64,000 bases of DNA from Candidatus Hydrogenedentales bacterium (GTDB lineage: Bacteria; Hydrogenedentota; Hydrogenedentia; Hydrogenedentales; JAEUWI01). Shown here one piece after another: positions 502 to 27,774 of this stretch. Location of the stretch: contig OW818658.1 in the NCBI GenBank assembly GCA_942492815.1, forward strand, positions 5,996,284 through 6,060,283, written 5' to 3'. Both the position numbers and the translations under genes were made by a program. The stretch's first letter is position 1. Each line of letters starts with the position of its first letter. The notes below the pieces were generated by a model that searched no databases, had not been told where the DNA came from, and saw nothing but the letters and a program-made list of their open reading frames with translations.

Positions 502-1500
502 GGACGTACCGCCGCAAGCGCACTGCGAGCAGGAAAAGTGAAACCACGGGCACTCTCGCCGCGTCTTCGAGCGCAGCGCACCACAGCGCGGAGGCATGTC
601 CCTGGGGATGTAACGTCGCGACGTGAACGTCGAAGTTGCCAAACGGGAAGTTACTTTTCTTCCCCGTCATCCCACCCATCCACCGGGACAGGCCCACGCA
701 TCAAACACACGCCGTCAATGGTAAACGGCTTTTGCTGCATCGAGTTTTTCGCGCTATCGGACGACTATTGAGCGCGGGTCCGTCCCTTGGGGACGTACCG
801 CCGCAAGCGCACTGCGAGCAGGAAAAGCGAAACCACAGGCATTCTCGCCGCGTCTTCGAGCGCAGCGCACCACAGCGCGGAGGCATGTCCCTGGGGATGT
901 AACGCAGCGACGTGAACGTCGAAGGTGTCGAGCAGGAAGTCTCTTTTCTTCCCCGTCATCTCACCCATCTACTGGGACAGGCCCACGCATCAAACACACG
1001 CCGTCAATGGTAAGCGGCTTTTGTCGTATCGAGTTCTTCGCGTTATCGGACAACTCTTGAGCGCGGGTCCGTCCCCAGGGGACGTACCGCCGCAAGCGCA
1101 CTGCGAGCAGGAAAAGTGAAACCTCAGACACTCTCGCCGCTTCTACGAACGCAGCGCACCACAGCGCGGGGGCATGTCCCTGGGGATGTAACGCCGCGAC
1201 GTGAACGTCGAAGGTGTCGAGCGGAAGGTGACCTCTCATTCCCGTCATCGCACCCATCCACTGGGGACGTACCGCCGCAAGCGCACTGCGAGCAGGAAAA
1301 GTGAAACCTCAGACACTCTCGCCGCTTCTACGAACGCAGCGCACCACAGCGCGGGGGCATGTCCCTGGGGATGTAACGCCGCGACGTGAACGTCGAAGGT
1401 GTCGAGCGGAAGGTGACCTCTCATTCCCGTCATCGCACCCATCCACTGGGGACGTACCGCCGCAAGCGCAATGCGCGGAGGCAAAGCAAGGCCACAACGA
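501..1500. repeat. composite direct tandem repeat array A. Units are 184-296 bp and mosaic (a short unit with or without a ~100 bp insert), about 5 units. The last two 184-bp units are identical. Contains the palindrome CGCGACGTGAACGTCGAAG.
   Basis: Seen directly: the unit start GGGACGTACCGCCGCAAGCGCACTGCGAGCAGGAAAAG recurs at ~501, 797, 1078, 1263 and 1447. The array sits between the cNMP gene stop and the RAYT stop. Confidence 0.9.
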
Positions 1501-1503
1501 CAA

Positions 1504-2130
1504 TTACTTGTCGGGCAGCCATCGCTTGAAGTAGGTCCGATCACCGAGAGGTTTTCCATTTCGCGTATGTTGCCGGATCTTCTCCAGAAAGCCCTTGTTT
1601 TCCATCTCTACCGTCAGGCCGTCTCGCCATTCGGAATCCGCGAAATGGCTGAACCATCGATTCAAATCGAGCAGAGTATCGTGATCGCGACTGCCACAGT
1701 GCGCAGGAGCACTGGACCACGTGTAGTCCCACGGCAATGCAACCATTCCGGCTCTCACCGGATTCAATTCGACATAGCTCAACGCGCTAACTATGTGGTC
1801 CAAATCCATCGGGCAGGAGTAAAATCGCCCATGCCAGAGATGGCCAAAACGCCCGTACTTCTGATTGATGTAGCTGGCGTGCTCAAGCTGCGAAGACTTC
1901 ATGGCCCGGCTTAAGCTCTCCTTCTCAGCCGGTACTGCAACGATATGTATGTGGTTGGTCATGAGGCAGTAGCCGAGAATACGTACGCCGTATTCCTGGC
2001 TGTACTTCTCCAGGAGATTGATGTAGCGCATTCGGTCTTCGTCTTCGAAAAAGACCGGCTCTCGATTGTTTCCTCGATGGGTAATATGGTGCGCAACCCC
2101 GGGAAGCACTATGCGTTGTTCGCGTGGCAT
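1504..2130 (-). CDS. REP-associated tyrosine transposase (RAYT, TnpA_REP; IS200/IS605-like Y1 HUH transposase)
   Basis: 208 aa. Carries the HUH motif (MTNHIHIVAV) and a catalytic Tyr region (WHGRFYSCPMD), typical of the Y1 transposase / RAYT family. Flanked on both sides by repeat arrays. Confidence 0.85.
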   Translation of the reverse strand: MPREQRIVLPGVAHHITHRGNNREPVFFEDEDRMRYINLLEKYSQEYGVRILGYCLMTNHIHIVAVPAEKESLSRAMKSSQLEHASYINQKYGRFGHLWHGRFYSCPMDLDHIVSALSYVELNPVRAGMVALPWDYTWSSAPAHCGSRDHDTLLDLNRWFSHFADSEWRDGLTVEMENKGFLEKIRQHTRNGKPLGDRTYFKRWLPDK

Positions 2131-2159
2131 AGCAGCAGGGTATCGAGCATGCTCGGGTT

Positions 2160-3215
2160 TGTCAAGACTTGACGTGAACGTCGAAATCGCCGAGCGGGAA
2201 GTCTCTTTTCTTCCCCGTCATCCCACCCATCCACCGGGACAGGCCCACGCATCAAACACACGCCGTCAATGGTAAACGGCTTTTGCCGTATCGAGTTTTT
2301 CGCGCTATCGGACGACACTTGGGCGCGGGTCCGTCCCCCAGGGGACGTACCGCCGCAGAGGCCCCATACCAAATCAGAAAGCACCCGAATCTGATGCCTG
2401 TTCCAACAGGGCGCAGCGCACTACAGCGCGGGGGCATGTCCCTGGGGATGTAACGCCGCGACGTGAACGACGAAGGTGTCGAGCAGGAAGTCTCTTTTCT
2501 TCCCCGTCATCTCACCCATCCACCGGGACAGGCCCACGCATCAAACACACGCCGTCAACGGTAAACGGCTTTTGCTGCATCGAGTTTTTCGCGCTATCGG
2601 ACGACACTTGAGCGCGTGTCCGTCCCCCAGGGGACGTACCGCCGCAGAGGCCCCATACCAAATCAGAAAGCACCCGAATCTGATGCCTGTTCCAACAGGG
2701 CGCAGCGCACCACAGCGCGGAGGCATGTCCCTGGGGATGTAACGTCGCGACGTGAACGTCGAAGTTGCCAAACGGGAAGTTACTTTTCTTCCCCGTCATC
2801 CCACCCATCCACCGGGACAGGCCCACGCATCAAACACACGCCGTCAATGGTAAGCGGCTTTTGTCGTATCGAGTTCTTCGCGTTATCGGACAACTCTTGA
2901 GCGCGGGTCCGTCCCCAGGGGACGTACCGCCGCAAGCGCACTGCGAGCAGGAAAAGTGAAACCTCAGACACTCTCGCCGCTTCTACGAACGCAGCGCACC
3001 ACAGCGCGGGGGCATGTCCCTGGGGATGTAACGCCGCGACGTGAACGTCGAAGGTGTCGAGCAGGAAGTCTCTTTTCTTCCCCGTCATCTCACCCATCTA
3101 CTGGGACAGGCCCACGCATCAAACACACGCCAGCAAAGGCAATCGGCTCCTGCCGTATTGAGTTATCGCGCTATCGGACGACACCGGGGCGCGGGTCCGT
3201 CCCTTCGGCCATCCT
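2160..3215. repeat. composite direct tandem repeat array B. Same family and orientation as array A, about 4 units. The last unit overlaps the 3' end of the GH5-like gene.
   Basis: The same modules recur: GACGTGAACGTCGAAG, CATCCACCGGGACAGGCCCACGCATCAAACACACGCCGTCAATGG and GGGGACGTACCGCCGC. The array ends ~3215, inside the GH5 gene's last ~11 codons. Confidence 0.9.
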
Positions 3216-4533: not shown

Positions 4534-7500
4534 TTAGCTCCGCCGATAAAGCGGATCGGCACCCAGCGTACCTTTCAGGCTCTCGAGATAGTTTGGGTGC
4601 TCCAAGCGGTATAGCTCTGCCTTGGCCTCTGCGAGGCGTCCGACGATGTCGAGGCGTTCGGCCTCTTCGACGTAGTTGGGCTTCTCCAGGAACGCCGAGA
4701 GGTTCTTGATGTGCCGTTTCCACAGGGCGCAGTCGCGCTCCTGCTTGATTCGGAGGCGCTCATGATACCAGTCACTTTCCATCAGGTACTCGCGGGTGAA
4801 AAGCTTGCGAATTTCCGGGTCCTGCACCGACTTGCCCTCATAGTGACCATGCACCATGATGTGGAGGAGGGCCGCCAGGGGCGGGCAGGCCGCCGTGATG
4901 CTGCCGTCGTCGAAGAAGGCCTGGGCGCAGCGCTGCTGGGCCTCCGTGATATTTTTGATACCGTCCACGTAGGCGTCCATGTCCTGGAGCTCGGGCCGGA
5001 GCATTTCGTCGTTGAACACCGTCGAGGGACTGTCAAACACGCGGCCGAAGTAGTGGCTCAGGAAGGTGCGGGTCATGCGGTAACCCAGGCGGCTCGCCAG
5101 GATCGTCTCGCCCTGGTATTCGAAGTCATCCACTTTCTCGAAGCACCCTTCGCGGAGCAGGTGTGCGGGATCCCGCTCCACTTCGGAAAGGCGGCACCAC
5201 ACTTCGGGAATCAACAGGCTCACGTCGTGGTCCACGCGATACTTCGGGCCGATGTAGCCCGCCGCCGTGGTGAAGCTCTTGTATTCCGTCAGGATGTACG
5301 ACACCAGTGCGTTGTTCAGATCGCTGGTGGGCGTGAGGCAGTTGAAAGGCCCCTTGGTCAGGGCGCCTTCCGATCCCGCACCCGTGGTCGAGGGTGACTT
5401 GCCGGTCAAGCTGGCGATGAAGTCCATGAAGAGCTCCGGGAGCTCCTGGTGGTGAATCGGGTTGTAGACCGCCAGCGGGCGGATCCCGGCCTTCACGTCG
5501 GGCGGGTTATTCCGCCGGCCGGGCAGCACGGCATTCACCGGGTGTAGCACGGGCTTGTCCATGGGCACGCGGCGGTGAAGGCGCGTGGCCACTTCGCCGA
5601 TGTATTTGTCCCGCGGGTTGGTCAGATCGGGGCGCAACTGCAGATAGCGCGGGTTCTTCGACGGCGCGCCATCCACGATGCGCGGGTGTGCCGACGACAC
5701 GAAGTATTCTATATCGTCGCTGTCCGCCACGCGGTTGATCAAATCCTGCATCGGCTGGCTGTAGGCCTGGAAAGTGATCGTGTGCTGCTGTAGCTTCCGG
5801 GCGTCTTCGCGGGTCAGGGGCTCGAAGTTGGAGATGAAGTTCTCGTCTTCCGAGAGGTCCCGCTCCGTCTGTTTGTCGTGGCCCCGGTGGATCGCGTCGT
5901 CGGGACGCTGGAACAGGCGCATCTCGCAATTGTCCACGATCTTGACGCTCGGGTTCTTGTACTCCGGGCAGAGGTGCGAGAGGCTACTGGCCGGTACCAC
6001 CACCGACGCGGAGATATCGTCTTCTTTCTGAATCTTCGCCGCAGGCAGGAAATCCTGGCGCAGCTTGTAGGTGCGCCACGACCCGTCGCTCACCAGGCCC
6101 ACGCGCAGATAGCTCGCCACCAGCTTGCGGCCGTTGAACTTCAGCTCATGGCCCGGCTTGCCGTTGATCACGTCGGCGCTGAAATGGCTGCGCCAGTCCT
6201 CGCCCCACTCGGGGCGGTAGAAGCGCTTGATGATGAAGATCATCGCCTTCACATAGTCCGGGATCGTGTTGAGCCAGGCGTTGTACTCGGGCGTGTAGTC
6301 CTCTTCCGAGGGTGTCAGCAGCCGGATCACCGAACCCAGCGAACGGTTGGCCGCCAGCAGGGGACGGCCCTTGGATACGATGCGCTTGTCCTGGAAGCGA
6401 TCGCTGAAATGATGGGCCATGACCGCCTGAATGCGATTGAGATCTTCCTTGTAATCGGCCACGAAGAAGGGGCCGTAGTGCACGGCATCCAGCAGGGATT
6501 TCGAGATCTCGGACTTGCCGCCGCCCGACACGGTGCAGGGCTTGTGACAGAAGGTGCCTTCCACGCCCGTGCCCACCAGACGCCAGCTCGGGGCGCCGGG
6601 GTGCTTTTCCATGTGGACGTTGTAGCCGTCCGGGTTGAGGTACACGTAGCCCGGCCGCAGGGGGATTTCCTGCTCCACGCCGTCCCGCTCCCAATACACC
6701 CGCTGGGTATTGAGATCGATATGGACGTTCTCCGGCACGTAGATGACGTCCGGGTAAGCCCGGTCGACGGCATAGCCCTCGGGCTGTACCTCCATCAGCT
6801 CGCCATACTTGGCGACCATCTCGTCAAAGCCGTGGCCTTCCTTGGTATAGCGGAAGTCCATGAAGAATTTATCGCCCAGGTTGAAACGGGCGTAGGCCAG
6901 CGCACCGCCCGCGTGCTCTTCTTCGCAGTTGCCGTAGAGGTTCGCCGCATAACTGAGCTGGGTTTTCACTTCCTTCTTGCAGTAACCAAAATAGTTGTCC
7001 GCAATCAGCGTCACCATCACGCCCCGGTCGTCGCGGCAGGCAATCTTGAAGGCGTTGCCGTCGTTGTACAACTCGCCCTCGTCCTTCCAGCACATACCCT
7101 CCTTGCGCTGGCGCTCCGTGGCGTCGTCGAAGTAAGGAAGCCCCAGTTCCTTCTTGCGCAGGTGGGTCAGGTGTGGGGCCAGCACCACGCAGCCCGTGTG
7201 GCCCGTCCAGTGCTCCGCATCGAGGGCGGCATCATTTTCCGCCAGTGTCGGATCGCCCGCGTTGCCGAAAATGGTTTCCACGAAGTCGAGGTTGCTCACC
7301 AGGCTGCCCGGCACGAAGAACCGGGTCTCCATCGTCTTCGCGGGGAGCAGGCCCGGGATCTCGGCCGAGACCAGCGGCCGCATCATGAGCGACACCATCG
7401 TGTGGGCCTGATCGTCCTCTTCAGCGAGGAAGGGCAATTGGAGCAGGTCGCGCGGCGGGTTCAGCGCCGCCACCATCAGATTCCCGAAGACCCGCTTCGG

Positions 7501-21870: not shown

Positions 21871-22602
21871 ATGAAGAACATGACCCGATACGCAAGCATT
21901 CTCGTCCTGGTCGTCGCCGCGCAGTTCACTTTCGCGGAAGACACGGTCCAGATCCTCCGAACCGGCCTGTGGCATGGCGACAACGTCACCGCCGAGTCGG
22001 GTCCCGACTGGTGGGGCATCTTCCCGGAGGGCGACGGCTTCACGCTGCAGCAGGCGCCGGTGACGATCACGGCCGAGTTCGATGCCATGATGGACCAGGA
22101 AGGCCAAGCCACGGGCAAGCTGGTAAAGGTCCCGCAGGAAGCGGAACCCGTGCTGTTGGTGTACGGGATCAAGGGGCTCAAGGAAGGTCGACTTAGTACG
22201 ACGAAACGTAGAATTTCTGAAAACATGGTCGAGCCAGGCCAGAGCATCGATTTGGAATTGACTGGTGATGAATCCCACATCTCGACGAAGCTTGAGATTT
22301 CAGGCAGCATGATCGCACCGGAGGGTCAAAGTGACCGATTGCCGGAAGACTTCGAGTTTACGTTGGTGCGAATATCTGGCTCGAGAACCGTGAGACAGTC
22401 TCTTGCCAAGCTTCCTGGTATAACCGATGGCAAACCACGGCTCGTCTGGGCGGGCGATCTCGACCGGGATGGAAGGGTGGACGTCTTGCTCAACACTACT
22501 GACAAGTACTTCGTAACTCATCTCGTGCTCTATCTCTCCAGTGCGGCGAAGAAAGGTCAACTCGTCGGCAAGGTGGCGGAATGGAGAAGGGCGGCCTGCT
22601 GA
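21871..22602 (+). CDS. secreted hypothetical protein (signal peptide MKNMTRYASILVLVVAAQFTFA)
   Basis: Signal peptide. No recognizable domain. Overlaps the upstream small ORF. Confidence 0.55.
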   Translation: MKNMTRYASILVLVVAAQFTFAEDTVQILRTGLWHGDNVTAESGPDWWGIFPEGDGFTLQQAPVTITAEFDAMMDQEGQATGKLVKVPQEAEPVLLVYGIKGLKEGRLSTTKRRISENMVEPGQSIDLELTGDESHISTKLEISGSMIAPEGQSDRLPEDFEFTLVRISGSRTVRQSLAKLPGITDGKPRLVWAGDLDRDGRVDVLLNTTDKYFVTHLVLYLSSAAKKGQLVGKVAEWRRAAC

Positions 22603-24306: not shown

Positions 24307-25305
24307 ATGATTTTCCTGGCCTTTATCCTGCTCATCACCTGCGGCGCCCTGGGCTTCATCTACTGGCAGATCCAGAAAACCACGGCCCTCACCACGCCCT
24401 CCGAAGTGCTCGCGTACCATGCCCAAGAGCACAAGTACTTCGTGGACAATCACTCGCCCACCGTTTCAGAGCTGGCGGAGTCGCTCCGTGCCAACGGTTT
24501 TGAAGAAGTGGCCGCCGCCGCTGAGCGCGCCTCGAAGCCCTGCTTCCGGCTGGTGCCCGCCGCGGAGGAGGATATCAGCCCACGCAGCCACTTGGGCGGC
24601 GCGCCCGACCTCCCGGATTTCGCCCTCTGGCCCCAGTGGGAGGGCGTTCCTCTCGCCTTCCTCGCCCAGATCGATCTGGGCGAACTGGCCGAACTGAACC
24701 CCGACACGCCCTTGCCAAAGGAGGGCCTCCTGTCCTTTTTCTACGACGCCGACCAGCGCACCTGGGGCTTCAAGCCCGAAGATCGCGGCAGTTGGCGCGT
24801 GCTCTATTTTCCCAACCCCTTCGAACCCGTGGCCATCAACGAATGGCCCACGGGCCTGCCCGAACACGGCTGCTACCCATTGGCTTCCATGTTCGTCGAG
24901 CACGGAGAGTCCCTGCCCGATGATCTGATTGACGATTTCCTCGCCGCGAGAAGTCCGCGGGAAGCCGCCATGCTCGAAGACATCATGGATCAATACCAGC
25001 AATGCTACGAAGGCGCGGCCCACCAGGTCCTCGGCTACCCCTACGCCATCCAGGGCGATATGCGCCTCGAATGCCAGCTCGCCAGCAATGGCCTCTTCTG
25101 CGGCGACGAATCGGGCTACAAGGATCCCCGAGCAAAAGATCTGGAGCCCGGCGCCGCCGACTGGCACCTGCTCTTCCAGCTCGACTCCGATGATCGCGCC
25201 AGCATGATGTGGGGCGATATGGGCACGCTCTATTTCTGGATCAAAGACCAGGATCTCGCGGCGAAGCGCTTCGATCAGGTGTGGATGGTGCTGCAGTGCG
25301 CGTGA
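24307..25305 (+). CDS. DUF1963 (YwqG-like) domain protein with an N-terminal membrane anchor
   Basis: C-terminal WGDMGTLYFWI motif typical of DUF1963. N-terminal TM MIFLAFILLITCGALGFIYW. Confidence 0.6.
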   Translation: MIFLAFILLITCGALGFIYWQIQKTTALTTPSEVLAYHAQEHKYFVDNHSPTVSELAESLRANGFEEVAAAAERASKPCFRLVPAAEEDISPRSHLGGAPDLPDFALWPQWEGVPLAFLAQIDLGELAELNPDTPLPKEGLLSFFYDADQRTWGFKPEDRGSWRVLYFPNPFEPVAINEWPTGLPEHGCYPLASMFVEHGESLPDDLIDDFLAARSPREAAMLEDIMDQYQQCYEGAAHQVLGYPYAIQGDMRLECQLASNGLFCGDESGYKDPRAKDLEPGAADWHLLFQLDSDDRASMMWGDMGTLYFWIKDQDLAAKRFDQVWMVLQCA

Positions 25306-25311
25306 GGCGGA

Positions 25312-27774
25312 CTAAACCATCCGCGCTACACCCGAATCCCCATCCACCTCAATCATAGCCCCCGTCGTAATTCGCTCCGTCGCCTCCGGCACGCCGATGA
25401 CTAACGGAATCCCATATTCCCGTGCAATGATTGCCGCGTGGGACAGCAGCCCGCCACGCTCGATTACGAGGCCCGCCACGTGACGCAGTACCGGGGTCCA
25501 GGCGGGATCCAGGCAGGGCAGCACGAGCACGCACCCTTCGGGCAGACACTCGGTCAGGGCATTCAATTGCTGAAAAACCTGGGCCGGGCCTCGCGCCACG
25601 CCTGGTGAAGCGCCCACACCCCGGAGCACCGTGGCGGTCGGGTCGTCGCCCTCCGGTTTCCACGGCCCGAGGTGGGTCGGTCGCCGCACGGGCACGTTGA
25701 TGCGGTGCTCACGTCTACGCTGAGCGATGCGGGCCGGGTCGGCTGCGTGCCCCTCGGTCAGGGCCTGTCGCAATTCGTCCCACGTGATCCACCAGAGGTC
25801 ATCGGCCTTTTCCAGCAGGCCTTTCGCCTCCAGGGAGCGGCCCGCGCTCAACAACAGCGCGCGCTGTCGCGCGAGAATACGCTCCCAATGAAATCGCTGT
25901 TCCTCGCGCATTTCCAGCAGGCGTGCGAGGACGTTGCGGGACTGTGGCGATGTCATGGCGAGCGTTGGATGTGTCGAATCAAGCTCCGTACTCACAGAAG
26001 TGTCGTCATTCCCGCGCATGCGGGAATCCAGTGCGTTTGCGCAGTCTGCGATGTCCGGTCGCTGGATTCCCGCTTTCGCGGGAATGACTGAAGCGTCGAA
26101 ATCTTTTTCACCAGTCGAGTCTGGGCTTGAATCGAGAGACCCGAAAGGCGGGATCTCCGCCCAGGTCGGCGCGGCATAGTCCAGCGATGAGGATCGATGG
26201 CCGCAGTTGCGCAGGAACGCCGCCACGGTGGTCTGATCGCCGACGTAGGCTACCTCACGGGCGGCATTGGCTTCGGCCGTAACCAGGCGCACCTGCCCGT
26301 GCAGCCGCCGGCGCAGACTCTCCCGGAGCGCGCGGGGCAGCGGACGCGTCAGCATCAGAAAGGCGTTGTAGGCGTAGTCCGCCAGCATGATGCTCCAGCG
26401 GTGCAGGCACAGAAACTCTTCTGTCAATGCGTCCAGTTGCGCCCAGGCCTCGTACCAGACCTCCGCATCGTCGCCGTCCTTCGCCTCGGGAATCGCGGCC
26501 AGCCGCGTGCCGAGGCCATCGCGGAATCGATCCCAGGCGCGGAGGTTGCCGAGCACGCGTTTGCGCTCGCGCCAGAGCACGGGAAGTCCGGTCCAGAGCA
26601 AACCGGGACCGGGCAGGCGACCCGGCGCCTTGCCTGCGGGATAGAGCTGGCGCAGGTCGGGCGTGAGCAGCCACGCGGGCAGATTGCGAAGGAGCCGGTG
26701 GTACGCCTCCAGGGACACGTAGACTTGTCCGCTAAAATCGAAGGTCAGGGGCGCTGGCACGGCGATACCGCGCAACTGAAGCGCGTCTTCAACGCCGGTG
26801 CGCACGATGAGGGGCAGCAGCGTGGTCCGCGTGATGGGGTGAATCGGTTCATGGAATCGCTGATCTAGAAACCACGACGTGGCCGGCACGGGCGGGCGAA
26901 GCGAAGCCTCCAGCGCGAGGCGCGTGATGGGCCGGGCCTGAAGGAGCCAGAGCCCCGAAGCGTCCGCGGCCCATTCGATGTCCAGGGCGGCGTCGAAAAC
27001 TTCTTCCAGCTTGAGCAGCCAGCCGAGCAACGCCGCGACGAGTTTTTCATCAAGTTGATCCGGTCCCTGCGCACCCGTTTCGACCTGCGCGATCGCACTG
27101 CTCTCGATATCCACTTCAAAGCGGCTGGGCGTTGCGGTCCCATCCACCAGAGCGCCGCACTCCCCGAGGACGGCCTCTATCAGCACCCGATCATAACGCG
27201 CGCGACTTGGATGGGCGGAGAATGCAACACCGGAGAGGACAGGCGTGATACGGCGCTGGAGGATGACGGCCATGGCGCCCGGACCATGGGCGTTGCGGTA
27301 GGCCGAGGCACGCTCCGCGCGTGCGCTACTGAGCACGGCATCGATCGCCTCGGGAAGTTCAGCCGCGCTCGCGCAGAACAAGGTTTCGTAAATTCCCGCA
27401 GCGGAGGCGCCGGACTGATCTTCCGACAGTCCGGAGGAGCGCACGGCCAAGCCTTCGCCATTGGGACTTAGCTCCGCAAAGAGGGCGTCGAGCGCCAGGC
27501 GAGATTCAGCGGTGTCTGGATGGAAATGGACCGCCGCGTCCGCCGGCAGAACCACCCAGGGGGGCACGGGTGCCCCGGCCGCGTGGAGCCGCAGCAGGCC
27601 AGCGGCCTTCCCGCCGATGGACAGCGGAGACTCGCCATCAAGATCTTCGGGTTTTTTGAAGAGCGCGTGATCCAAGGTGCCCTGGAATTCTGGCGGATGC
27701 ACCGCCACGGGATGGGTCGAATGGGTCGAATGGGTCGAAAAGGCCCGCAAAGTTTCGAGCCCCCTCGCTGTCAA
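25312..27774 (-). CDS. PEP-utilizing phosphotransferase family protein (PpsA/PPDK-like ATP-grasp N-domain + C-terminal swivelling phosphohistidine domain; rifampicin-phosphotransferase-like architecture)
   Basis: C-terminal GGLLSHAAIIAREYGIPLVIG is the PEP-utilizing mobile-domain His motif. N-terminal GGKAAGLLRL is ATP-grasp-like. A low-complexity insert encoded by a palindromic repeat separates the two. The true start is uncertain (possibly a non-ATG start downstream of the STHSTHSTH repeat). Confidence 0.75.
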   Translation of the reverse strand: MTARGLETLRAFSTHSTHSTHPVAVHPPEFQGTLDHALFKKPEDLDGESPLSIGGKAAGLLRLHAAGAPVPPWVVLPADAAVHFHPDTAESRLALDALFAELSPNGEGLAVRSSGLSEDQSGASAAGIYETLFCASAAELPEAIDAVLSSARAERASAYRNAHGPGAMAVILQRRITPVLSGVAFSAHPSRARYDRVLIEAVLGECGALVDGTATPSRFEVDIESSAIAQVETGAQGPDQLDEKLVAALLGWLLKLEEVFDAALDIEWAADASGLWLLQARPITRLALEASLRPPVPATSWFLDQRFHEPIHPITRTTLLPLIVRTGVEDALQLRGIAVPAPLTFDFSGQVYVSLEAYHRLLRNLPAWLLTPDLRQLYPAGKAPGRLPGPGLLWTGLPVLWRERKRVLGNLRAWDRFRDGLGTRLAAIPEAKDGDDAEVWYEAWAQLDALTEEFLCLHRWSIMLADYAYNAFLMLTRPLPRALRESLRRRLHGQVRLVTAEANAAREVAYVGDQTTVAAFLRNCGHRSSSLDYAAPTWAEIPPFGSLDSSPDSTGEKDFDASVIPAKAGIQRPDIADCANALDSRMRGNDDTSVSTELDSTHPTLAMTSPQSRNVLARLLEMREEQRFHWERILARQRALLLSAGRSLEAKGLLEKADDLWWITWDELRQALTEGHAADPARIAQRRREHRINVPVRRPTHLGPWKPEGDDPTATVLRGVGASPGVARGPAQVFQQLNALTECLPEGCVLVLPCLDPAWTPVLRHVAGLVIERGGLLSHAAIIAREYGIPLVIGVPEATERITTGAMIEVDGDSGVARMV
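26005..26089. repeat. intragenic REP doublet: two self-palindromic 25-mers in inverted orientation (GTCATTCCCGCGCATGCGGGAATCC ... GGATTCCCGCTTTCGCGGGAATGAC), inserted in frame within the PEP-utilizing enzyme gene
   Basis: Seen directly. It encodes the low-complexity peptide ...SVIPAKAGIQRPDIADCANALDSRMRGNDDTS... between two folded domains. Confidence 0.85.
27713..27740. repeat. tandem 9-mer (GGGTCGAAT x3) at the 5' end/N-terminus of the PEP-utilizing gene (encodes STHSTHSTH)
   Basis: Seen directly. Confidence 0.85.

Follow-up and report, generated by a model that had tools for sequence, protein, structure and literature searches.

A 64,000-nucleotide stretch of contig OW818658.1 from a Candidatus Hydrogenedentales bacterium (here the window, from whose first letter all coordinates are counted) carries on its minus strand an intact gene for a phosphoenolpyruvate (PEP)-utilising enzyme, and within this gene lies a pair of inverted palindromic repeats that is read through in frame. 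The pair is a doublet of the CGTC-1 class of repetitive extragenic palindromic (REP) sequences, and it forms the core of a segment that two close, syntenic orthologues and all more distant ones lack (Table 1). The encoded protein comprises, in order, an ATP-grasp PPDK_N domain, a central helical region and a phosphohistidine swivel domain, in whose translation the catalytic histidine motif GGLLSHAAIIAREYGIP is intact. Based on the Pfam domains, an AlphaFold model (pTM 0.80, built with 19 orthologues) and the closest solved structures identified by Foldseek, the product is predicted to be a three-domain dikinase-like enzyme. These structures are those of the rifampin phosphotransferase of Listeria, RPH-Lm (5HV1 and 5FBS, E ~3e-31), which shares the arrangement of ATP-grasp domain, central helical region and C-terminal swivelling histidine domain and to which the host protein is merely 18-19% identical; the host enzyme thus appears RPH-like by fold, and rifampin specificity is not implied. 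The closest named relatives of the adjoining SurA-like gene are in metagenome-assembled genomes (MAGs) of Candidatus Hydrogenedentota, and the distant named orthologues of the host enzyme are also from Hydrogenedentota.

A reading made from the sequence alone (the sequence-only reading) had reported two palindromic 25-mers within the coding sequence and proposed that they are a REP doublet, and both are present in the interval 25800-26400. Their common core is the 20-mer ATTCCCGC-N4-GCGGGAAT, at 26008-26027 and 26066-26085, which with its flanks gives two inverted arms of 27 nt (26005-31 and 26062-88), which have a complementarity of 93% and are separated by 30 nt. Each unit is 28 nt long, and the doublet is oriented with the heads outward and the CCA tails inward. 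The palindrome occurs twice in the window, both times at this site, against an expectation of 0.03 from shuffled sequence. Both units lie inside the minus-strand open reading frame (ORF), which is free of stops across them and is translated as ...DASVIPAKAGIQRPDIADCANALDSRMRGNDDTSVSTELDS...; readthrough of the units gives the segment ...DASVIPAKAGIQRPDIADCANALDSRMRGNDDTSV..., from which DFDASVIPAK and AGIQRPDIADCANALDSR are predicted tryptic peptides. At most four of the six frames of a CGTC-1 repeat can be stop-free, because AATGAC yields TGA in one frame on each strand, and in this copy two of the three frames are open on each strand.

Table 1. Features of the host gene, its product and the repeat-containing segment (window coordinates unless given as residues)
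Feature	Position	Strand or length	Description
Host gene, PEP-utilising enzyme, rifampin-phosphotransferase-like	25312..27774	-	820-codon intact ORF
PPDK_N ATP-grasp domain	aa 101-287 of host protein		Pfam PF01326, 2e-36
PEP-utilizers phosphohistidine swivel domain	aa 744-815 of host protein		Pfam PF00391, 4e-25
Lineage-specific segment GSLDSS...TLAMT	25951..26142	-	64 codons replacing a 16-codon loop; net +144 nt (48 aa)
REP unit A	26004..26031	+	CGTC head, 8-bp stem ATTCCCGC, 4-nt loop GCAT, stem GCGGGAAT, CCAG tail; coding strand gives LDSRMRGND
Spacer between units	26032..26061	30 nt	Translated RPDIADCANA
REP unit B	26062..26089	-	AGTC head, stem ATTCCCGC, loop GAAA, stem GCGGGAAT, CCAG tail; translated VIPAKAGIQ
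Small adjacent hairpin GAGACCCG-AAAGG-CGGGATCTC	26136..26157		Probably outside the element

The strong internal hairpin that had been anticipated for the messenger RNA is borne out by predicted folding: a 216-nt stretch folds as RNA at -92.8 kcal/mol (z = -5.6), and the 93-nt core by itself forms a single long hairpin at -52.8 kcal/mol. The third, smaller hairpin that the sequence-only reading had added near 26136 is real; it resembles a degenerate REP and is probably separate from the repeat. On the coding strand, the half of it that lies upstream (plus strand 26143-26157) consists of the conserved host codons EIPPF, the codon alignment shows GAGAT(C/T)(C/G)CGCC(T/C)TTC to be common to alleles with and without the insert, and the hairpin is weakened in the only other carrier of the insert. 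A larger element was also considered, a 176-nt miniature inverted-repeat transposable element bounded by outer inverted repeats (25967-84 and 26125-42), and was rejected: with the core removed the remainder folds no better than shuffled sequence (z = -1.25), and the outer arms match none of 120 other doublet loci and none of the contigs of the JGI metagenomes. No Rfam family was matched at threshold, only generic hairpin or miRNA-like models below gathering, and a scan of the whole window was likewise empty.

The insert compared with orthologous alleles

In the protein alignment the segment is carried by the window allele and by one further orthologue (P0002), and is lacking in two close orthologues (P0003 and P0004) and in 15 more distant ones. 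Outside the insert P0003 and P0004 are 87% and 86% identical to the host protein, and the DNA of all three close relatives (L001-L003) has the same SpoU-methylase gene upstream, so that P0002, P0003 and P0004 can be taken as syntenic orthologues. In the codon alignment, filled alleles have 64 codons between the conserved ...PPF and SPQSRNV..., and empty alleles have 16; the insertion of about 50 residues that had been surmised is therefore a net gain of 48. The loops of the outgroup orthologues hold only 24-27 residues, from which it follows that the empty state is ancestral. An assembly chimera, which the sequence-only reading had named as one outcome that would undo it, is excluded because the insert of P0002 comes from a contig of an independent MAG assembly (GCA_041859365.1). 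The segment is laid out as 54 nt, an 84-nt doublet and a further 54 nt, and the REP core, at up to four mismatches, was not found in L002 or L003, which hold the empty alleles.

In the AlphaFold model the confidence score pLDDT falls below 50 exactly at residues 547-610 and stands at 87-95 in the flanks. Given these low values between confident flanks, and the presence of a loop in the empty alleles, it appears that the insert enlarges a variable surface loop that predates it and is itself predicted to be disordered. The site had been described as the linker between the ATP-grasp region and the histidine domain, and this holds insofar as it is a flexible, variable loop; its location, however, is within the central helical part of the protein, some 135 residues ahead of the phosphohistidine domain, and not in the linker proper, the hinge to that domain lying at about residues 700-715. 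The further proposal that a REP had been domesticated as a linker is not upheld, since the loop was there before the insert (16 residues in empty alleles, 24-27 in distant ones), the inserted residues are predicted to be disordered, the differences between the carriers are mostly nonsynonymous and one arm of the palindrome pair is decaying in P0002.

Downstream of the insert the window allele and P0002 differ at none of 37 amino acids and at 9 of 20 fourfold degenerate sites over alignment columns 608-645, and at 12 of 71 amino acids and 14 of 39 fourfold sites from column 750 to the end. These counts indicate purifying selection on the part of the host protein that follows the insert, and hence that the insertion is tolerated; because of this constraint and the intact GGLLSHAAIIAREYGIP, the gene is likely to be functional with the insert in place.

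Several observations at the site and in its surroundings stand apart from these comparisons. In the empty alleles L002 and L003 the codons after ...TWAE are GAG ATT GCG CCC TTC GCG GGC GTG, giving the peptide EIAPFAGV, and the stretch ATTGCGCCCTTCGCGGGCGT within them agrees with 11 of the 16 REP core positions, its translation IAPFAGV recalling the REP peptide IPAFAGM (WIPAFAGMT); the probability of such a resemblance by chance is estimated at about 0.05-0.1, and it may be what is left of an earlier REP that degenerated in place, or a coincidence. At the 5' end of the ORF the peptide STHSTHSTH is encoded by three tandem copies of a 9-nt repeat (27712-27738, minus strand), within an N-terminal extension that has pLDDT below 30 and is missing from the close orthologues. 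The contig of P0002 holds an additional 825-aa gene with a faint AAA_16 match (L001 3366-5843) between the enzyme gene and a DUF1963 gene, with none at the equivalent place in the window (24307-25311).

The repeat family and its other in-frame copies

By definition (PMC3733652), a CGTC-1 repeat has at its 5' end a CGTC head, for which a TGTC-type variant may stand, followed by an 8-bp stem that begins with AT and encloses a 4-nt loop, and it closes at the 3' end with a CCA tail. Both units fit this definition. The class was equated with Neisseria dRS3 and Rickettsia RPE-6 by Di Nocera, De Gregorio & Rocco 2013, BMC Genomics 14:522 (PMC3733652). The 28-nt NTS consensus, CGTCATTCCCGCGMAVGCGGGAATCYRG, has been given with a tolerance of one mismatch (PMC11893778, Nat Commun 2025), and each unit departs from it at a single position, unit A in the loop (V=T) and unit B at the first base of the head. 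On sequence, the doublet is thus a member of the family known variously as CGTC-1 REP, dRS3, NTS, RPE-6 and "Ssn-related motif".

Doublets were sought in one genome per species as two exact 27-nt arms with a gap of 24-36 nt. The same doublet was found at at least 120 genome loci in many phyla; among the matches listed are Alpha-, Beta- and Gammaproteobacteria, Planctomycetota, Hydrogenedentales, Verrucomicrobiia, Elusimicrobia and Ignavibacteriae, as well as Nitrospiraceae, Desulfobacterota-type MAGs (Desulfobulbaceae), Binatia and Patescibacteria/Parcubacteria. Five phyla with CGTC-1 were reported in 2013 (PMC3733652). The spread of the present doublets (L004-L123) is far wider than that list, many of the records being MAGs in which binning contamination is possible. 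The assignment to the REPs in the sequence-only reading therefore stands, and its description of them as proteobacterial is too narrow for a repeat of many phyla in a Hydrogenedentota-like host. In 123 other doublets the spacers are of 24-36 nt, a range set by the search pattern, and of unconserved sequence, and in 118 copies the only conserved bases outside the arms are -1 (C, 67%) and +1 (G, 69%). A BLAST search against plasmids gave matches, in Azospirillum, Sphingopyxis, Neisseria gonorrhoeae and Photobacterium, that are confined to the central ~85 nt.

The protein linked to this repeat is the GIY-YIG nuclease SsnA, which binds and cuts NTS in single-stranded DNA (ssDNA) only and whose gene ssnA is flanked by NTS (PMC11893778). 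Comparable arrangements were found among the scanned loci: a 95-aa GIY-YIG ORF (Pfam 7.6e-16) lies between two doublets in L034, and ssn-like ORFs with a repeat within 60 nt occur in L062 and L118. In the first of these, a Tepidisphaeraceae MAG, the doublet-ssn-doublet unit (5587-7308) comes directly after an ORF for an N6-adenine methylase (HsdM-like). In the window itself no ssn was found, the sole tblastn match (22417-22593, E = 0.048) being inside an unrelated 252-aa ORF.

The window also contains a RAYT-like Y1_Tnp gene (1504-2130, minus strand; Pfam 1.5e-14; 42% identical to a Pseudomonas RAYT fragment) within tandem arrays at 1000-3100 whose periods are 185 nt and 289 nt. The palindrome CCGTCCCC-A-GGGGACG is present in every array unit, and from their sequences these arrays form another REP/BIME-like system, with no relation to the CGTC-1 doublet. 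Membership of the doublet in the REPIN/RAYT system was considered and ruled out, because the repeats that flank the RAYT gene of the window differ from it in sequence. No association with RAYT has been reported for CGTC REPs (PMC3733652). An arrangement that conflicts with this published absence of a tyrosine transposase was seen in Viridibacterium curvum (L067 5330-5781), where 12 nt separate a CGTC-1 doublet from the end of a RAYT-like ORF that is 51% identical to the RAYT fragment of Pseudomonas.

In-frame copies of the repeat have precedents. Intragenic REPs occur in several species and were proposed to be neutral owing to their location in flexible linkers or loops; CGTC-1 units were described as inverted pairs with spacers of 20-100 nt, the dimer in the DNA polymerase I family protein MICA_2230 of Micavibrio being SIPAKAGIQTGPSMDSRLRGNA; and Additional file 3 tabulates CGTC-1 inserts translated as VIPAKAGI, DSRFRGND and SFPRKRES (PMC3733652). 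There is no dikinase or PEP-utilising enzyme among the entries of that file. A search with the 70-aa insert peptide returned only four short spurious ORFs (P0121-P0124) that carry REP peptides, and did not recover the parent proteins; the view that IPAKAGIQ and RMRGNDD are the usual translation of such repeats is thus confirmed both by these ORFs and by the published table. Nine of the doublets are spanned by long ORFs, of which only two are convincing as real genes, while the others look like arginine-rich antisense ORFs or doublets that lie upstream of the true start; 2 of 123 scanned doublets are convincingly intragenic. One is in hsdS of a Pseudoxanthomonas MAG (L086 7078-7159), between the two specificity domains, and the other is inside the CobN domain of cobN (L025). 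In addition, the annotated ileS on the 404-kb replicon pMC4 of Sphingopyxis indica (L124 1015-4086) holds two in-frame doublets, RHPRESGDPERASANPTLDSRFRGND and RHPRESGNPERASADANMDSRFRGNDE, giving the peptide RHPRESG[DN]PE...DSRFRGND inside or beside Pfam domains. The hsdS doublet and the ssn unit that follows the HsdM-like ORF may indicate that these repeats are connected with type I restriction-modification loci.

Divergence of the insert and alternative readings

It is suggested, with a probability of roughly 0.85, that a CGTC-1 doublet inserted in a hypervariable surface loop of the enzyme and is a tolerated passenger in one Hydrogenedentota-like lineage, and not a domesticated module. On this view the doublet entered the central-region loop of the RPH-like gene in a single lineage; since the 144 nt gained are divisible by three and the repeat is stop-free in two of three frames per strand, the gene stays open, and its predicted product gains about 48 residues that are predicted to be disordered. 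As to how it arrived, Ssn, a GIY-YIG ssDNA endonuclease and the sole protein known to be associated with CGTC repeats, is a candidate for the mover. An mRNA hairpin of about -53 kcal/mol and cleavage of ssDNA at the site by Ssn are possible consequences of the sequence.

Of the 192 nt of the insert, 12 differ between the two carriers; 8 of the differences are nonsynonymous and 4 synonymous, and their distribution over the three codon positions (5/1/6) is not coding-like. The second unit of P0002 is CTGAATTCCCGCATGCGCGGGGATGAC, in which one stem pair is now T·G and the C after the palindrome is gone, and the hairpin is weaker by 7 kcal/mol. That C is reported to be the most important base for binding by SsnA (PMC11893778). 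Judged by these sequences, neither a new protein function nor a maintained recognition of the insert by the nuclease finds support.

Several points weigh against a simple tolerated passenger. No other stretch of 64 codons in the gene is as little diverged as the insert, which stands at 6.2% overall and 9% at third positions, as compared with 29 and 44 differences in the adjacent 192 nt to the left and right and a third-position divergence of 28-39% there. Local fourfold divergence is 0.21-0.45, the divergence of the insert is 3-4x below that of neighbouring neutral sites, and by Fisher's test p = 7e-6 (12/192 vs 29/116). So low a divergence would not be expected of a neutral passenger that the two carriers have shared since long ago, and this reading leaves it unexplained; it is possible that the insert spread after the lineages split, that it is constrained at the level of DNA or RNA, or that the figure is a small-sample effect of having two carriers. 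Furthermore, recognisable repeat accounts for only 84-93 nt of the 144-192 nt of extra DNA, a further 51-60 nt being left over. What is shared with other loci is confined to about 26001-26093 (about 78-170 of a 231-nt extract), and neither the 120 other doublet loci nor the JGI metagenome contigs contain a match to the outer 54+54 nt. A search of the same contigs with the spacer of this doublet gave 0 matches and thus no sister copies from which the insertion point and a target duplication could be read. Finally, relaxing the core to four mismatches across the window revealed no further convincing copy, and within these 64 kb there is no sign that the family is, or was, active in this genome.

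The first of the possibilities just named, that the insert postdates the separation of the carrier lineages and was moved between them by homologous recombination (for example as a large-loop heteroduplex escaping mismatch repair), so that its low divergence reflects age and not constraint, is considered the most serious alternative, while still being doubtful. It draws on the mosaic nature of the gene, in which third-position divergence between the window allele and P0002 varies between 0.12 and 0.65 from one part to another (window 25312-27774 vs L001 775-3171), and over columns 645-750 P0002 shows a divergence of about 40% to each of the three remaining close alleles, its protein there resembling P0006. 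To the left of the insert the close alleles, four in number, are nearly equidistant and star-like, with a fourfold divergence of about 0.2 for every pair, and in the right flank the window allele groups with the empty allele P0004, such that the local tree shifts at the right border of the insert. The near-neutral pattern of substitutions in the insert is also in keeping with recent transfer. However, the tract of low divergence would have to end some 10-15 nt from the insert on both sides, which is unusually tight, and no donor or intermediate allele was found in the orthologue searches or in the JGI metagenome contigs.

Alternatively, the doublet could be kept by selection on the nucleic acid, either for mRNA structure (a translational pause between domains, or an RNase or stability site) or for a DNA site (Ssn cleavage, or a boundary of recombination), with the peptide as a by-product. 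The low divergence of the insert, the spread of its differences over codon positions, the very stable hairpin, the mosaic nature of the gene and the shift of the tree at the right border would all be consistent with this, as would the shortening of recombining ssDNA by SsnA cutting at NTS in Neisseria (PMC11893778). Against this, the statistics are weak with two carriers only and other blocks of the gene reach a third-position divergence as low as 12-16%; in P0002 one unit has lost both a stem pair and the C on which Ssn binding is reported chiefly to depend, with the weaker hairpin noted above; close orthologues function without the insert; and the unique outer 54+54 nt are conserved equally to the repeat, which selection on the hairpin alone does not explain. 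Selection of this kind is therefore regarded as unlikely. A bolder form, in which the doublet is actively conserved or repeatedly exchanged and a site at which an Ssn-type ssDNA nuclease cuts DNA that is entering or being replicated, and/or the strong mRNA hairpin, sets the boundaries of recombination, is given an equally small chance. Were it true, the doublet would have made the gene mosaic, and both the least-diverged insert and the shift of the tree at its border would be explained.

That the insertion inactivated the gene, leaving a decaying pseudogene whose frame is open by chance, gains what plausibility it has from the long spurious ORFs that are common at 62-64% GC. This is very improbable, as the full ORF is present in both carriers, the histidine domain and catalytic motif are intact, the downstream sequence is constrained as described above and the parts of the AlphaFold model that adjoin the insert to either side have high confidence. 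Lastly, although there are merely two copies in the window and the CCCGC/GCGGG stem is loosely like type I-E CRISPR repeats, it is hardly conceivable that the palindromes arose by chance in a low-complexity linker native to the protein, that they come from chimeric assembly or that they are a CRISPR array of two repeats that has degenerated, as chance would give 0.03 copies and identical 27-nt arms recur at the loci counted above, the same insert is in an independent assembly, and the units are inverted and not direct by head and tail, number only two, lie inside a conserved coding sequence and were matched by nothing CRISPR-like and by no Rfam family at threshold.

Comparison with known repeat systems

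Read as a tolerated insertion, the locus offers a clean and datable case, with both filled and empty alleles, of selfish palindromic DNA absorbed into a protein as a predicted disordered loop. Intragenic copies of this kind are natural test cases for effects of the repeat on recombination or translation, and peptides of the VIPAKAGIQ / DSRxRGND type should be recognised as repeat-derived in annotation.

Of the known systems, REPINs, formed of GTAG REPs moved by Y1 transposases of the RAYT type, resemble the doublet in being short and non-autonomous and in pairing two inverted REPs into a single long hairpin. The head here is CGTC, however, and not GTAG, and the RAYT gene of the window is flanked by a different palindrome. 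The likeness to the dRS3/NTS repeats of Neisseria and their nuclease Ssn is closer: the motif agrees within one mismatch, and elsewhere the repeat flanks GIY-YIG genes in the same manner as NTS-ssnA-NTS. The two differ in that NTS in Neisseria cluster intergenically, whereas the copy described here is predicted to be translated, and no ssn was found in the window. This comparison ties the old observation of REP peptides (VIPAKAGIQ / DSRxRGND) to the target motif of the Ssn ssDNA nuclease reported in 2025.

The nearest counterparts are the intragenic CGTC-1 dimers (PMC3733652), with which the doublet shares head, stem, loop and tail, the inverted pairing and the in-frame peptides of the VIPAKAGI type. 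The family and the peptides that it typically encodes, as well as the presence of copies in frame within genes, have been known since 2000-2013, and because intragenic CGTC-1 dimers were tabulated by Di Nocera et al. 2013, this copy is a further example of a known phenomenon. It differs from the tabulated cases in its host, an RPH-like enzyme and a member of the Hydrogenedentota, neither of which is listed there, and in that about 28-31 of the 64 codons of the segment are repeat. Like the Rickettsia palindromic elements (Ogata et al. 2000, as presented in PMC3733652), in which an in-frame palindromic repeat adds a peptide to functional genes, the doublet lies within a coding sequence, keeps the frame, is free of stops and is absent from orthologues. 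Of these elements RPE-1 is longer and unrelated in sequence to the doublet, and whereas Rickettsia is obligately intracellular, the host here is of a free-living type with a large genome (7.9 Mb). With this locus the phenomenon reaches past Rickettsia and the Proteobacteria into a Hydrogenedentota-like genome, and a new enzyme family joins its hosts.

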